Source of the DNA: an uncultured Gemmatimonadales bacterium
GTDB lineage: Bacteria > Gemmatimonadota > Gemmatimonadetes > Gemmatimonadales > GWC2-71-9
Assembly: GCA_963844035.1 (NCBI GenBank)
Contig: CAWJMT010000005.1
Coordinates: 1 to 64,000, forward strand
Direction: 5' to 3'
DNA: 64,000 bases
Shown here: positions 36,201-42,200 of the stretch, in pieces
Layout of the letters: each line of letters begins with the position of its first letter
Position numbering within the stretch: the stretch's first letter is position 1
Position numbers: made by a program

Positions 36201-39200
36201 GGGAGTCGCGGCACGTCCGACCACGCAGGCCGGCGCCGGATCGGCGCATGGCGTCGGGCTGGACGCTGTACGCACCGCCGGGTATCGGCGCCGGGCTCCC
36301 GACCTCACGGCAAGTGGCCGTGCCACAACGCGTTGGACCGAGTCGCATCTTGACGCGTCTAGGATGGTGTTTTAGCTTTCGGCAACGAGCATCTCGTTCG
36401 TGGTGATGCGCCGTGCTTTGCCACCACGCCCGCGGCAGTCCTGCCGGGGCGTTTTTGTTTCGGGGGAATTTTGCCTGGAGCCGGAGTGACTCACGCGAAG
36501 GGTTTCGCCGCACGCCTGGACAGCCTGGGGACCGAGTCCGCCTACGTGGTTTTGGACGCGGCCCGGAAGCTCGAGGCTGCGGGCCATCGTGTCGTCCATC
36601 TCGAGATCGGCGAGCCGGATGTGCCGACGGCTCCGCACGTCATCGAGGCGGGGATCCGGGCCCTGCGTGAGGGGCGTACCCGGTACGCGGTGGCGGCCGG
36701 GGTGCCCGAGTTCCGCGACGCCATCGCCCAGGCGATGGTGCCGCGCGGTGTTCGCGTTGCGGCCGAGAACGTGATCGTCACGCCGGGCGCGAAGCCGATG
36801 CTGTTCTGCGCGGCGCTGGCGCTCATCAACCCGGGTGACGAGGTGCTGTGCCCCAACCCCGGGTTCCCGATTTACGAGTCGGTGGTGCGCTTCGCTGGTG
36901 GCAAGCCGGTCTACTACCCATTGGACAAGACGCGGGGCTTTGCGCCCGACGTCGCCGCGATCGCGGCGCTCATCACGCCCCGCACCCGCGTGATGATCCT
37001 GAACCTGCCCGCACAACCCGACCGGCGGCATGGCGACGCCGGATGACCTCGCGCGTCTGGCGCAGCTGGCCGAACGGCACGACCTGTGGGTGATCAGCGA
37101 CGAAGTGTACTGGCACATCACCTACGGTCCACACGCGAACAGCATCGCCGCGCTCCCGGGTATGGCGCAGCGGACGGTGATCGTGGATGGATTCTCGAAG
37201 GGCTACTCAATGACCGGGTGGCGGCTCGGTTACGGGGTGATGCCGAAGGCCCTCGCGGGTCCGATGACCACGCTCATCATCAACAATCTCTCCTGCACCG
37301 CGACGTTCGTGCAGTACGCTGGGCTCGCGGCGCTGCAGGGTCCCCAGGACTCCGTGTTGAAGATGGTCGCGGGACTGAAGACCAAACGCGATCTGGTGAT
37401 TGCCGGCCTGAACGCGATCGACGGGGTGACTTGTGCCTCTCCTGCCGGTGCGTTCTACGCGTTCCCGGACTTGAGCGGGTTGCTCGAGCGTACAGGCCTG
37501 TCGTGCGAATCCTTCGCGGAGCGGCTGCTCTCCGAAGCGCACACGGCTGTGCTCGCGGGGACGGCTTTTGGGTCGGCTGGGGAAGGGCACCTGCGCCTGT
37601 CATATGCGAATGAGCCCGCCAACCTCGAGCTGGCGCTCGAGCGGATCCGGAGCTGGGTCGGGAGCCTTGCCGCCGCGGTCTAACGGGGGCGCTTGACGCG
37701 CCGCGTACCCGGGCTATGTTTTCACGCACAATCGTTGTGCCGTGGTGATTTGCCGCGTATTGCCGCCACGTTAAATAAAGTGCTAAAATGCGATCGCCCG
37801 CGGCATTACTTGCCCGGGCCATTTTTTTTGAGGGTGCCATGCCTGCCTCCACGAAGGTCGATAGCGTGAACCTCGGCGCCAAGACGACGCGCCCGGCGGC
37901 GCCTAGGGCGCTGCCGCAACGTTGCCGCAACTGCGGCACGGAGCGGGCGCCGGCCCCGGAGTCCCTGTGCGGGGAATGTCTCGGACCGCTCGACCCCATC
38001 TACGACCCGAAGCGCTCTCTTCCCGATCGTGCGACGATTGCGGCACGCGCGCCCTCTCTCTGGCGCTACCACGAGTGGCTGCCGTTCGAAGGGGACCCGG
38101 TGTATTCGCTGGACAGCGGGTTCACCCCCCTGCTCGACGCGCCCAGGCTGGCGCGGCGGCTCGGCGTGGCCCGTGCCTGGATCAAGAACGACACCGTGTG
38201 CCACCCCTCGCTGTCGTTCAAGGACCGGGTCGTGGCCGCGGCGATCAACGCCGCGGCGGCGTTCGGGCTCGACACGATCGGCTGCGCCTCGACCGGCAAC
38301 CTGGCGAACGCGGTGGCGGCGCACGCGGCGCGCAACGGGCTCACCGCCTGGGTGTTCATTCCCGAGGATCTCGAAGCCGGGAAGGTCTACGGCACGAGCA
38401 TCTACGGCCCCAAGCTGGTGCGCGTCCGGGGCACATACGACGACGTCAACCGCCTGTGCGCGCAGGTGGCGGACCGGTTTGGGTGGGGCATCGTGAACGT
38501 GAACCTGCGGGGATACTACGCCGAAGGATCGAAGACGCTGGCGTACGAGATCTCCGAGCAGCTCGGGTGGCGGTTGCCCACGGCCGTGGTGGCGCCGATG
38601 GCGGGTGGATCGCTCGTCAACAAGCTCCGCAAGGGGTTCGGAGAGTTTCTGGAGGCCGGGCTGGTGAGTGGCCCCTCGCCTCGGTTGTATGGGGCGCAAG
38701 CATCCGGGTGCGCGCCGATTGTGCGGATGGTAGAGAGCGGCGGTACCCAGATCGTACCCGAGATCCCGCACACCATTGCGCGCTCGCTCGCGATCGGTAA
38801 CCCGGCGGACGGTGTGTTCGCCGCCAAGGCGATGCGGGAGTCCGGTGGTTGGGGGGCGAAGGTGAGCGATGAGGAACTAGTGGCCGGGATGCGACACTTG
38901 GCGGAGGACGTCGGAGTGTTCGGCGAGACCGCCGGTGGCGTCACCGTGTCGGCGGCGCTCGCGCTGGCTCGCGCCGGCCGGCTCCGGCCGGACGATGAAG
39001 TCGTGCTGTGTATCACCGGGCACGGGCTGAAGACACTCGAAGCGGTGAGCGGTGTGCTGCCCGAGGCACCCGTGATCGCGCCGCGGTTGCGCGAGGTGGC
39101 GGCGTTGGTGGAGGCGAGTGGGTGATGGAACACGTTGCAGGCGGGAGGTCATGAGATGGCGATCACGGTGAATTTGCCTTCGGTGCTGGCGGCTCACGCA

Positions 39201-42200
39201 GGCGGCGCGCGCAGCATCGAAGCCACGGGGCGGACTCTCGGCGAAGCGGTCGCGGATGTGGCGGCGCGCTTTCCAGCGCTCGGGCCCAGGCTGCAGGACA
39301 AGGACGGCAAGCCGTATCCGTTCGTGGTGTTCTATGTGAACGACGAGGACGTGCGCTTTCGGGGAGGGTTCGCCGCCACCATCAACGACGGCGACGAGGT
39401 GACGGTTATCCCTGCGATTGCGGGCGGGTGAGCGCGCCCCGCTGCGAGAACCACAGCGCGCCCAGGTAGGCCCCGGCGGCGGTGAGGTAGAGCGCCTTCA
39501 CGCCGGTGGCCATGGACGAGTACTCGAGTAACCCTCCCACGATCGCTCCCACGAGGTTGTAGGCCAGCGCCCGCGTCGGGTTCACGCGCGTGCGGAACAA
39601 CATCGCGAAGATCGTTGCGGCGAAGAGAATCGGGAGCGCCACGAGCAGTCCTCCGACGAGCCATTGCCCCGCCATGCCGAGCCACAGAATGTCGCGCACC
39701 GGAACCACGTAGGCGAGTCCGAGCGAGGCGAACAGCAGCGCGAACGGCGCCGTCAGCGACGGCCAGGGCTTTCGCAGCACCAGCATGTTCGCGATCAGAA
39801 TCGTCACCAGGATCGAGCTGAAGACCAGGAGGTTCACCGTCCAGGTCGATCCGAACAGCAGCGACATTTCGGTGACGCTCTTCGTCTCCACCAGCAGGAA
39901 CCCGGCCCCCATGAAGAACATGGCGCCGTCGAACCCGCCCTTCAGCTGGCGTCCCGCCGTGGCGCCCACCAGCCCGAGCGCGATGGCCAGCACGATCCCC
40001 AACGCTTTGAGGTAGTGGCCGGGAATGGCGCGGCGTCCGAGGTAGAGGTACGGCCAGTCGTCCGTGGGGACCGCCACGTTGCCGACGCGCCCGGCCGGGA
40101 TGGTAGGGCTGATTGTGACATCGGGGTCGCCGCCCGCGATGAAGCTGTAGTTGAACAGATGGGAGTCGGGTTGGTGCAGGACCACCGGTTCCTTCTCGAA
40201 CGCCTCCGTCAGGACGCGGTGAATCTTCGCCGCGACGTAGGGGAACGGCGACATGTGGTACGTGACGAGTCGGCCCCCGGGAGCCAAGCGCGACCGCGCC
40301 GATTTGAACGCCTCCACCGTGTAGACGTAGTTGTCCAGCCGCAGCGAGCTCATCCCCGACAAGAGCGTCTGGCTGTCGAGCGTTCCCAGCACGATCAGAT
40401 CGTAGTGGTGCCGGGTCTGCCGCAGGAAGGCGCGGGCGTCGTTGACGTGTGGCGGTCACGCGGGGGTCCGAGTACGGCTGCTGAAAGTGCAGCGCCCGCC
40501 CCAGGGTCAGGATCAGGGGATCGATCTCGACCGCGTCGATGTGCTTGGCTCCAAGCTGCAGCAAGAGCGACAGGTCGTTACCCGTGCCCGCCCCCATCAC
40601 CAGCACGGAGTCGATACGGGGCACGAGCTTGAGCGGCTTCAGGTAGGCGTTGCGCTGGTTGCCGATCTCGGGGAATTTCGCCGCGGTCTCGGGCGACAGA
40701 TCCAGCATGTACTGGTGCAGCGAGCCGTTGACGTCCACGGTGTAGATGTGCGGATCGGCAAAGAGATCGATGCGGTAGTAGGGCGACCAGTATTCATGGC
40801 CGCCAGCCCCGGCGCGCTCGATCTGCGCGCCGCCGCTCCAGTGTATCAGCCCCAGCACGGCGATCCCCGTCACGCCGATCGTGGCGCTGAATTTCCAGTC
40901 GTCCAGCGCCAGGAGCACCCAGATCGCGAGGGCGGCGCCGAACCACACCAGCGGGGGCGTCCACAGCGCGGAGGCGACCGCGAACGCGAGCACGCCGAAC
41001 AGGCTCCCGGCCACATCGAGCGAGTAGGCGTGCAGCGGGGGAAACTTGCGGAACTCGTGGCCCAGCAGGCCGCCCAGCGGTATGAACACGACGACGCAGA
41101 ACCCGAAGAGAATCGTCGCCACGGGAACGATGCCCATTTGGGTCACGTTGGGCGACGACGTCAGGAACTGGCCCCACAGGTATTCGTCGCGATCGATGTT
41201 GCCCCCGATCACGACGTTGGCGAAGTACTTCACCGCACCGAACAGGGCCAGCAGGGCGGGGACGGCGAGCCAGCGCAGTCGCATGGCATCGTCCGCTCGC
41301 AGCAGGCCGATGCCCATCCCCAAAAACGTGGCCATCAGCACGAAGTTCAGGAAGAACCCGAACACCCGTACGTGCCCCGGCACATAGCGGATCAGGGCCA
41401 GCTCGAGAAACAGAATCAGGAAGGAATAGCCGGCCAGCCGGACCGCAGCCGCCCGCGTCGCTTCAGGCCGGGCGGAAGCCTCGGCGCTCTGGGAATTCAC
41501 GGCTACAAGGGTAGGAACAAGGGGTGTCGAATGCAACGGCGAGTTTGTCGGCCGGCAAGAAAAGAGCGGCGGGGAAGCCCCGCCGCTCGGATTCGCTCAG
41601 CGTTACCGGACCCTTACTGGCAGACCGGTGCGCCTTCCGGCGACGCGGCGGTCGCCGGAGCCGTCGGCGTCACCGCGCCGATGTAGATGCCGCAGCTCTT
41701 CGACGTGTTGACATTGGTGACGTTCGTCGTCCAACCCGCCTGCGTACCGACACCGGTCGTCACCGTGCCCAGCGTGTTGCCGGTCGTCGTACAGTACGAG
41801 ACCGAACCCGCCGGCGCCGGATTGGCGCACGAAATGGCCGTGGTGTACTTGATCGAGTCGGCGAAGTACGCCTCCTCGGCGGTCACCAGGTTGCGCAGAT
41901 CCGACTTCATGGAGGCGATGTACGCCTTTTCCTTCGTGTTGGCGAACTTCGGGATCGCGATGGCGGCCAAGATGCCGATGATCACCACGACGATCAACAG
42001 CTCGATCAGTGTGAAACCCTTGCGATTCATCTGAGTCTCCCCTCGTGCAGGACCGAATGCGGTCCGATGATTGGACCTCGGGCTGGGGCCTGCTCCCGCT
42101 GTCTCAAGTGTCCCTGGCAGCCGGGCTGTCTCGAGATTGGACCGAGACCCCTAGCTTTGCGTCCCGCCGTCACCGACGGTTTGCCCCATGCAGAGACCTT

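Follow-up and report, generated by a model that had tools for sequence, protein, structure and literature searches.

A SAM-II-linked MetM/MetO-type gene pair in Gemmatimonadales and a proposed aspartate-independent route to homoserine in its relatives

Two genes of an uncultured Gemmatimonadales bacterium, a threonine synthase paralogue and a ubiquitin-like sulfur carrier, very probably make homocysteine for methionine by the thiocarboxylate route known as MetM/MetO, with SAM-II controlling their transcription. Both are intact and lie in the window analysed here, the first 64,000 nucleotides of contig CAWJMT010000005.1. The MetM/MetO route itself is already known (2024). Relatives of this organism often carry a paralogue of PanB (PanB2) in the same type of operon, and comparison across the order points to a natural route to homoserine that would bypass aspartate. 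The features of the locus, in order along the window, are as follows.

36399..36459, +, aminotransferase leader: a SAM-II-like P1 and terminator lacking the aptamer 3' half (from sequence, fold and a terminator-like site)
36486..37683, +, class I aminotransferase; start could be 36471; frameshift near 37008
37693..37720, +, sigma70-like promoter: TTGACG, 16 nt, TATGTT; 9/12 consensus matches
37732..37806, +, SAM-II (SAM_alpha) aptamer; core P1 at 37740-37770, pseudoknot 3' strand from 37782
37751..37805, +, putative antiterminator; aptamer loop 37751-37757 and terminator 5' arm 37799-37805 are exact complements
37796..37828, +, intrinsic terminator hairpin and U7 tract (expression platform)
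37839..39125, +, MetM-type PLP enzyme, annotated threonine synthase; 428 aa, Cys4 ribbon, K128
39156..39431, +, sulfur carrier of MetO/CysO type; 91 aa, ending in a free GG

The SAM-II leader and its conservation

The survey's finding had placed a SAM-II aptamer before the enzyme gene, and Rfam model RF00521 matches there on the forward strand with 40.7 bits (gathering threshold 36; E 9.6e-6). Its claim of one further SAM-II in the genome also stands: the second match (C32:39069-39143, 44.9 bits) sits 5' of a homocysteine S-methyltransferase/MTHFR gene, and the genome holds no third RF00521 match and no match to SAM-I. Across 31 aptamers, 96.5% of 403 cells in P1 and the pseudoknot are paired, versus 26-44% when the scheme is slid, and compensatory changes are seen in only one of 13 pairs. 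The scheme scored is our own reading of the structure, which we take to follow SAM-II topology.

The leader as a whole joins the SAM-II aptamer to a conserved terminator and putative antiterminator. An exact 6-nt complement between aptamer loop and terminator arm occurs in 37 of 60 leaders (mean 19, maximum 29 for shuffled loops and arms), and loop and arm covary in three variants. As a raw count, 45 of the 60 leaders pass a crude hairpin-plus-U test. When SAM is scarce, the aptamer loop would pair with the terminator 5' arm and permit read-through; bound SAM would lock the pseudoknot and let the terminator form. A promoter scan based on consensus match alone gave two sites, versus 0.3 in shuffled sequences, and missed this terminator. 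A literature search combining SAM-II and Gemmatimonad returned no paper.

Orthologues of the enzyme (E<=1e-80) are present in 43 of 140 genomes. At 80 orthologous Gemmatimonadales loci we found SAM-II in 70, the carrier in 74, moeZ in 48, thrB in 33 and a rhodanese in 10, a SAM-II match being counted when it precedes the gene in the same orientation inside the locus DNA examined. With the aptamer upstream in 70 of 80 loci, its linkage to metM is more than chance; of 61 genomes of the order, 55 carry SAM-II. Genes for the carrier, MoeZ and homoserine kinase accompany the riboswitch in shuffled order, and four genomes (G123, G055, G007, G185) share the order SAM-II>hom>metM>metO>moeZ. A methionine-pathway gene or one of the type found in this operon lies within 1.5 kb downstream of 28 of the 31 SAM-II loci examined (tblastn with our own query set); two more SAM-II loci, from a set overlapping these 31, precede MTHFR. 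In genome G054 SAM-II precedes a thrB-thrA-thrC operon with canonical ThrC, so SAM-II alone is no proof of MetM.

Probable homocysteine synthesis and the competing readings

The enzyme had been described as a 428-aa threonine synthase paralogue with an N-terminal Cys4 ribbon, and it is indeed a PALP/TIGR00260 protein with CxxC...CxxC at residues 29-47. Its PLP lysine, K128, is invariant in 42 sequences. It shares 47% identity and a common clade (SH-like 99) with an enzyme of the actinobacterium Nonomuraea, versus 32-36% with ThrC-type proteins. The Nonomuraea gene lies 3' of a SAM-I riboswitch and 5' of a carrier gene, and serves as our proxy for likeness to MetM of Streptomyces albulus (A0A059WBP2). 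The Nonomuraea query returned only Streptosporangiales names among the 120 matches listed.

Threonine synthases of fold type II from T. thermophilus (1uim/1v7c) and B. subtilis (6nmx) share the fold and the PLP lysine motif at about 34-36% identity, and probably the substrate as well. They differ in their motifs: where ThrC has NSVNPxRxEGQKT, GNxGN and EPASA, the MetM-type enzyme has VNVNLRxYYxEGSKT, AGGSL and ETAGG, respectively, and R160 of 1uim, which we take to be the phosphate-binding residue, aligns with Y227. A literature search on ThrC Arg160 found nothing. The substrate-loop motif NPxRxEGQKT is present in none of 79 orthologues and is retained in the ThrC encoded on contig C4.

That the protein is a further threonine synthase or else a threonine deaminase, with SAM-II and the carrier incidental or serving some other sulfur pathway, is in our judgement improbable. 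It does pass TIGR00260 (240 bits, cut-off 167), the solved sequences and folds nearest to it belong to threonine synthases, and the G054 riboswitch precedes a true thr operon. A Microcystis homologue, 51.6% identical to MetM and adjoining a carrier, has threonine synthase and deaminase activity and did not raise methionine, as the part of PMC12172450 consulted describes. The fold model (pLDDT 93.3) returned threonine synthases, so the fold search cannot separate MetM from ThrC. Against this reading stand the motif loss in all 79 orthologues, the recurrence of carrier and moeZ at these loci in several gene orders, and a canonical thrC already present in the genome. The last of these corrects the survey's finding, which had named g00575 as the true thrC. 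Of three thrC-like genes in the genome, the copy at C4:304410 lies inside a thrB-thrA-thrC operon and has canonical ThrC motifs; the copy on C3, where gene-number spacing suggests that g00575 lies, is an orphan of PRK08197 type with non-canonical motifs. The earlier assignment was therefore probably mistaken. The survey's view that the name threonine synthase misleads for the window gene is upheld by the same motif count and the separate thrC.

The carrier, reported as a 91-aa ThiS/CysO-type protein, belongs to the ThiS family and ends in IAGG, and its best solved relatives are the CysO-type chains 3dwg_C and 4n6e_B. A GG C-terminus is found in 60 of 61 carrier-sized ORFs. The JAB-MoeB-rhodanese cluster that had been noted on contig C37 is there; its reading as the set needed to load this carrier does not hold as far as JAB is concerned. 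The cluster (rrf2-rhodanese-cysM-mec-cysO-moeZ) is a CysM/CysO operon with a carrier of its own that ends GG-T and is 33% identical to the one in the window. We considered and rejected JAB as a requirement for loading the carrier of the metM locus, because that carrier already ends in GG. The genome's Mec is the one beside the GG-T carrier, and its only moeZ (E1 plus rhodanese), at C37:290166, is interrupted by a frameshift in the assembly.

Another reading, which we regard as very unlikely, makes the protein a CysM/CysO-like, carrier-dependent enzyme that would use O-phosphoserine to make cysteine or cysteate and would be SAM-regulated for sulfur supply. CysO is the closest carrier among solved structures and TIGR03844 (cysteate synthase) gives a weak match of 60 bits, far under its cut-off of 325; the genome already has a separate cysM-mec-cysO-moeZ operon, and the linked thrB and hom make O-phosphohomoserine. 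The CysM/CysO/Mec/MoeZ system of Mycobacterium (3dwg) has the carrier family and the thiocarboxylate logic in common with the locus. Its enzyme is CysK/M-like, whereas that of the metM locus is ThrC-like, and this genome carries its own operon of the mycobacterial type on C37.

The MetM/MetO reading proposed in the survey's finding is supported by the linked riboswitch, carrier, moeZ and homoserine kinase, by the actinobacterial clade and by the absent ThrC motif. MoeZ would adenylate the carrier's GG terminus and turn it into a thiocarboxylate. The PLP enzyme would then eliminate the phosphate of O-phosphohomoserine and attach the sulfur from the carrier to the gamma carbon, and release of homocysteine would fall to Mec here and to some other step in the many relatives that lack JAB. 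In this genome homoserine would come from aspartate, since thrA and asd are present elsewhere, and thrB at C4:300954 would supply O-phosphohomoserine.

The route from O-phosphohomoserine to homocysteine through MetM, MetO, MoeZ and Mec was established in S. albulus (Hasebe et al. 2024, AEM 90:e01247-24), as relayed in portions of PMC13759103, 10.1101/2024.10.14.618325 and PMC12172450, and is described in the portion of GapMind 2026 consulted. As far as these excerpts go, the S. albulus system likewise has a ThrC-homologous PLP enzyme adjoining a ubiquitin-like carrier, a SAM riboswitch upstream of metM (PMC12172450), MoeZ and homoserine kinase available, and a separate true thrC. The Gemmatimonadales loci differ in using SAM-II with a terminator, where the actinobacterial example Nonomuraea uses SAM-I. 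From the S. albulus route as excerpted they differ also in the free-GG carrier, in having JAB/Mec in only 13 of 42 MetM genomes (0 of 20 in family f2), and in often placing thrB, moeZ and hom or PanB2 within one operon.

In line with the MetM reading, neither MetX nor MetA turned up in this genome, which is 83.7% complete. A full MetH was not found either. Two Cys/Met PLP enzymes, one of them just above the NCBIfam cystathionine gamma-synthase cut-off (528.7 vs 513), could by their sequence be another source of homocysteine. Counting against the MetM reading are the activity of the Microcystis homologue, JAB/Mec in 13/42, G054, these Cys/Met PLP enzymes and the MetH not found.

A PanB paralogue in place of homoserine dehydrogenase

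In relatives, a PanB paralogue, often with an aminotransferase, occupies the operon slot that elsewhere holds homoserine dehydrogenase (Hom); the paralogue is absent from this genome. In the 43 MetM genomes of the 140-genome sample, Hom turned up in 2 of the 16 that have PanB2 and in 24 of the 27 in which PanB2 was not found; 10 further PanB2 carriers yielded no Hom. A first sample gave 6/27 versus 20/23 (PanB2 of L074 included). It overlaps the 140-genome sample, on which we therefore rely: G049 and G107 are apparently a single genome. In an unbiased sample 2 of 17 PanB2 carriers also have Hom and 11 of 17 keep an Asd-like gene; five PanB2 carriers are also without aspartokinase and Asd.

PanB2 keeps the catalytic and metal motifs LVGDS, D84, K112/E114, H136 and E181 in 24-26 of 26 sequences (numbering from 1m3u; residues as named in the part of PMC13488298 consulted). 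It lacks the ketoisovalerate pocket motif DGQ(V/I)LV (I212, V214). Position 214 is I in the operon copies and in all 120 closest PanB2 homologues listed (DGQLVISHD in 111); the five solved PanBs and 26 of 31 other PanBs (pattern-matched) have V there. We infer that this change affects the substrate of PanB2. PanB2 stands on a branch of its own, marked by fixed changes in the pocket; an ESM Atlas search with PanB2 returned generic PanB clusters only.

The window's aminotransferase is homologous to those of the SAM-II/PanB2 operons of relatives (54-78% identity, tree). Its frameshift is probably an assembly error: one RNA contig (depth about 3) lacks one base at 37008, and the C7 copy, at 95% identity, reads through 373 codons without a stop. 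Five RNA runs contain 0.05-0.10 of the words; the contigs from four of them give no indication of expression or habitat. The leader of this gene is possibly a decayed SAM-II leader; it has no Rfam or profile match, and as an aptamer it is not conserved in 19 relatives.

From gene content and motifs we consider it fairly probable that Gemmatimonadales lacking Hom, and in some cases aspartokinase and Asd as well, have a natural route to homoserine that does not start from aspartate. PanB2 would condense pyruvate and methylene-THF to 4-hydroxy-2-oxobutanoate (HOB), and a class I aminotransferase, of the family encoded just 5' of the window's riboswitch, would convert HOB to homoserine. ThrB, MetM and MetO would lead on to homocysteine, and ThrC, where present, to threonine; release of homocysteine from the carrier would be Mec-free in most Hom-less PanB2 genomes.

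PanB2 might instead be catabolic, turning imported homoserine by way of the aminotransferase into pyruvate and methylene-THF for the methyl group of methionine, or might be a redundant pantothenate enzyme; we hold this possible and, on balance, doubtful. E. coli PanB cleaves HOB in an engineered strain (excerpt of PMC6966089), the catalytic motifs are kept, PanB2 is the sole PanB found in 5 of 26 genomes, and some carriers retain Hom (2/17) or an Asd-like gene (11/17). Neither C1 supply nor a vitamin role, however, predicts the loss of Hom (15/17, then 10/10) or the sharing of an operon slot with hom, and the separate branch with its fixed pocket changes and a second full-length PanB-family gene in 21 of 26 genomes also argue against it.

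In the literature we found, a pyruvate plus C1 route to homoserine is known only as an engineered one. The parts of these reports consulted describe a homoserine cycle with an HOB aldolase and an aminotransferase (PMC8879981), an HOB C1 cycle with an AlaC variant and PanB (PMC6966089), and partial rescue of a P. putida hom deletion on sarcosine by PanB overexpression (10.1101/2025.02.17.638773). The chemistry there is that of the proposed PanB2 route, pyruvate + C1 to and from HOB and homoserine, followed by homoserine kinase. In these excerpts HOB is called non-native or non-natural and the enzymes are promiscuous or evolved, whereas the relatives studied here have a dedicated paralogue in a natural SAM-regulated operon.

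The locus in the window extends the 2024 pathway to Gemmatimonadota under SAM-II and corrects a threonine synthase label, a useful but ordinary result; the comparative PanB2 result matters more. If true, it would add a step missing from the GapMind main text, in which 'PanB' has no match, and would offer C1 engineering a natural enzyme for chemistry that at present depends on promiscuous aldolases. Methionine and threonine would be buildable without aspartokinase, Asd and Hom, and the auxotrophies that common soil bacteria seem to have would be accounted for.

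The SAM-II leader and its genes

The survey's finding had placed a SAM-II riboswitch ahead of a threonine synthase paralogue and a sulfur carrier gene, and our searches recovered all three:

37693-37720, promoter-like site
37732-37806 (+), Rfam SAM_alpha match, 40.7 bits (gathering score 36)
37796-37828, hairpin with a U7 tract, 3' of the aptamer
37839-39125, intact PALP enzyme of 428 aa (TIGR00260, 240 bits), CxxC...CxxC at 29-47
39156-39431, ThiS-family carrier of 91 aa ending IAGG; closest solved structures are CysO-type carriers

As the survey also reported, the only further SAM-II match in the source genome (39 contigs; completeness 83.7%) is at C32:39069 (44.9 bits), preceding a frameshifted homocysteine S-methyltransferase/MTHFR gene. 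Across 31 aptamers, 96.5% of 403 cells are paired for the P1 and pseudoknot pairs that we specified, compared with 26-44% when the pairs were slid; compensatory change is limited to a single pair, so the pairing reflects conservation more than covariation. The 5' arm of the hairpin (37799-37805) is the exact complement of the aptamer loop (37751-37757). Among the 60 leaders fitting this pattern, of 70 with a profile match, 37 have an exact 6-nt loop-arm complement (shuffled mean 19, maximum 29; 2000 shuffles), and loop and arm vary together (GCCGCG with CGCGGC in 27/31, GCCGCC with GGCGGC in 10/12, GCCCGC with CGGGC in 11/11), counts that are not readable as a probability because the leaders share kinship. 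The window leader likely works by SAM-induced termination. A c-di-GMP-I-GGC riboswitch (61.1 bits) lies at 42112-42194 (-), upstream of an ORF (41614-42030) whose N-terminus resembles that of a type IV pilin. The contig end carries part of a 16S rRNA, at window 1-622 (-), and a tRNA gene lies at 3140-3221 (-).

The enzyme shares 32-36% identity with ThrC-type proteins; a Nonomuraea protein is closer, at 47%, and its gene has a SAM-I riboswitch (68.7 bits) ahead of it and a GG-ended carrier after it. A FastTree analysis of 28 rows (L013, a locus from a relative, omitted; 19 "MetM-like" rows picked by similarity to the query) separates the window and Nonomuraea enzymes from every ThrC-type row across a branch with SH-like support of 99. 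The motif VNVNLRxYYxEGSKT occurs in 79/79 translated orthologues, and NPxRxEGQKT in none of the 79. Named relatives are Gemmatimonadales. The source genome has three thrC-like genes, of which the one at C4:304410 carries canonical ThrC motifs and lies within thrB-thrA-thrC. The survey had taken g00575 as the true thrC; the spacing of gene numbers suggests that g00575 is instead the orphan copy on contig C3, and that label is therefore probably wrong. The C3 gene (C3:289355-290464; L003:6332-7480) is of PRK08197 type with non-canonical motifs, beside larC, and a low-scoring ThrC-like class resembling it is present in most of 49 relatives.

The MetM/MetO reading and carrier loading

The survey preferred homocysteine formation from O-phosphohomoserine by a ThrC-like enzyme (MetM) and a carrier (MetO) to threonine synthesis, and linkage to SAM-II, carrier, moeZ and thrB supports that preference. 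Of 231 confirmed loci we examined the top 80; one of them, L013, comes from the unpublished genome G089, which was also used for the aminotransferase tree and is counted among the 50 genomes sampled. Within the contig DNA examined, a profile built from 31 Rfam matches, the window's own among these, finds SAM-II upstream in 70, 32 of them within 410 nt. Other members are a carrier (74), moeZ (48), thrB (33), a PanB homologue (27), rhodanese (10) and hom (1), with an aminotransferase between riboswitch and enzyme in 15/80; membership is kept though gene order varies in many ways. Neither MetX nor MetA was found in the 83.7% complete source genome, and GapMind 2026 and PMC12172450 describe the MetM/MetO route; together with operon context, these support the reading. 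Against it, a Microcystis homologue acted as ThrC/deaminase (PMC12172450), two Cys/Met PLP enzymes occur in the source genome, and a canonical thr operon stands directly behind SAM-II in the relative G054. There (L305, G054:C8) thrB-thrA-thrC with canonical ThrC follows immediately, and MetM was not found in that genome. The window locus is borne out, and with high confidence we read it as most likely encoding MetM and MetO under SAM-II control, a new form of a route already known.

The survey held a JAB-MoeB-rhodanese set on contig C37 to be needed for loading the carrier. The E1 component stands: the C37 MoeZ, the sole one found in the source genome, is the likely loader. The Mec-type JAB peptidase is not required for loading; it was found in 13 of 42 MetM genomes tested (42 of 43, G114 left out), in 0/20 of family f2 and in 4/20 genomes without MetM. 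In JAB-less genomes homocysteine would leave the carrier by a step other than Mec. Carrier-sized ORFs at MetM loci end GG in 60/61, and the C37 carrier ends GG-T. The C37 operon (C37:287000-291300, L005) reads rrf2-rhodanese-cysM-mec-cysO-moeZ, a mycobacterial-type carrier-dependent cysteine pathway.

PanB2 and homoserine dehydrogenase in relatives

The PanB paralogue of these operons (PanB2) separates as a branch of 26 rows from the 31 other PanBs (FastTree 100); it retains the catalytic motifs, and at E. coli positions 212 and 214 it has L and I, respectively. E. coli PanB variants I202A, I212A and V214G let in bulkier partners (PMC7610986), which makes a tighter PanB2 pocket, suited to pyruvate, plausible from sequence. 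The clade accounts for 63 of 79 metagenome loci, with SAM-II in 49 (42/44 where more than 1.7 kb lies upstream), metM in 48, thrB in 32 and an aminotransferase in 31; the 16 more distant PanB loci have none of the four. A second full-length PanB-family gene is present in 21/26 PanB2 carriers (50 genomes behind the first loci).

In 140 genomes of the order, drawn evenly at completeness of at least 90% (the unpublished G125 counting only in this denominator), we found MetM in 43, homoserine dehydrogenase (Hom) in 71 and PanB2 in 17; these 17, from two families and nine genera, include MetM in 16 and Hom in 2. Genus g26 has both states. The 43 MetM genomes divide as follows.

PanB2 and Hom among 43 MetM genomes (Fisher p 8e-7, overstated, as kin are not independent)
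PanB2 only: 14
PanB2 and Hom: 2
Hom only: 24 (including the unpublished G114)
Neither: 3

A broader sample of 400 genomes from the phylum yielded 11 further PanB2 matches, all within the same two families; Hom was found in 0/10 of those at no less than 64% identity, and it was found in the single borderline one (54%), which has no SAM-II close by. Behind SAM-II, hom fills the slot in G123, G055, G007, G185 and L083, and panB2 fills it in other operons, with or without the aminotransferase. Asd has no match above 40 bits in six PanB2 genomes (96-99% complete; controls above 400 bits), and aspartokinase was not found in the five of these tested. Those five have a methionine synthase domain and, contig permitting, operons of the form SAM-II-(aminotransferase)-panB2-metM-thrB-metO-moeZ. 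The other 11/17 keep an Asd-like gene. Several Hom-less carriers keep canonical thrC, three as thrB-thrC. A miss in these metagenome-assembled genomes means "not found" and does not prove absence.

Beside these, a class III aminotransferase adjoins canonical-type thrC in two Hom-less PanB2 genomes (L245, L246). Three genomes (G117, G118, G187; L274, L273, L275) have MetM operons with neither PanB2 nor Hom found, which may reflect another homoserine source or an assembly gap. Hom had no match in 69/140 genomes, 52 of which also lack a MetM match; this suggests widespread methionine/threonine auxotrophy or further routes.

The source genome has only canonical PanB (C12:107122); it has both Hom and Asd and therefore no need of PanB2. 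Directly 5' of the riboswitch, the gene at 36486-37683 is closely homologous to the aminotransferase of the operons (54-78%), and its leader, 36399-36459 (+), has a SAM-II-like P1 and a terminator of the same type, the aptamer's 3' half being missing. These two features would fit an earlier loss of panB2 from an older operon in this lineage. In some relatives this leader keeps the terminator alone. Contig C7 probably stems from another strain that was binned together with this one; it is 90-95% identical to window 22519-37602, and its aminotransferase frame is open. The assembly is rich in indels throughout, and a cluster at 30500-34900 (-), presumably of biotin synthesis genes, has many frameshifts.

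A possible route from pyruvate to homoserine

PanB2 would join pyruvate and methylene-THF into 4-hydroxy-2-oxobutanoate (HOB), the aminotransferase would convert this to homoserine, and ThrB would yield O-phosphohomoserine for MetM/MetO to turn into homocysteine. Dedication of the aminotransferase is less certain, because many PanB2 operons lack it and other operons have it but no PanB2. The main rival is a catabolic PanB2 supplying C1 units from imported homoserine. The chemistry itself has precedent in engineering work: in an engineered strain E. coli PanB, paired with the transaminase activity of an AlaC variant, moves the HOB C1 unit to THF (PMC6966089), the homoserine cycle runs the same chemistry forward with an aldolase (PMC8879981, PMC7918591), and P. 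putida PanB partly rescues a hom deletion (10.1101/2025.02.17.638773). No natural case was found in the literature searched, whose scope excluded subscription papers and supplements, and "PanB" is absent from the main text of GapMind 2026. Synthesis of homoserine from pyruvate and C1, in the direction and on the substrate presumed here, would be the simplest account of the PanB2 operons, and exchange of PanB2 for Hom in these relatives, toward which we lean somewhat, is the part worth testing.
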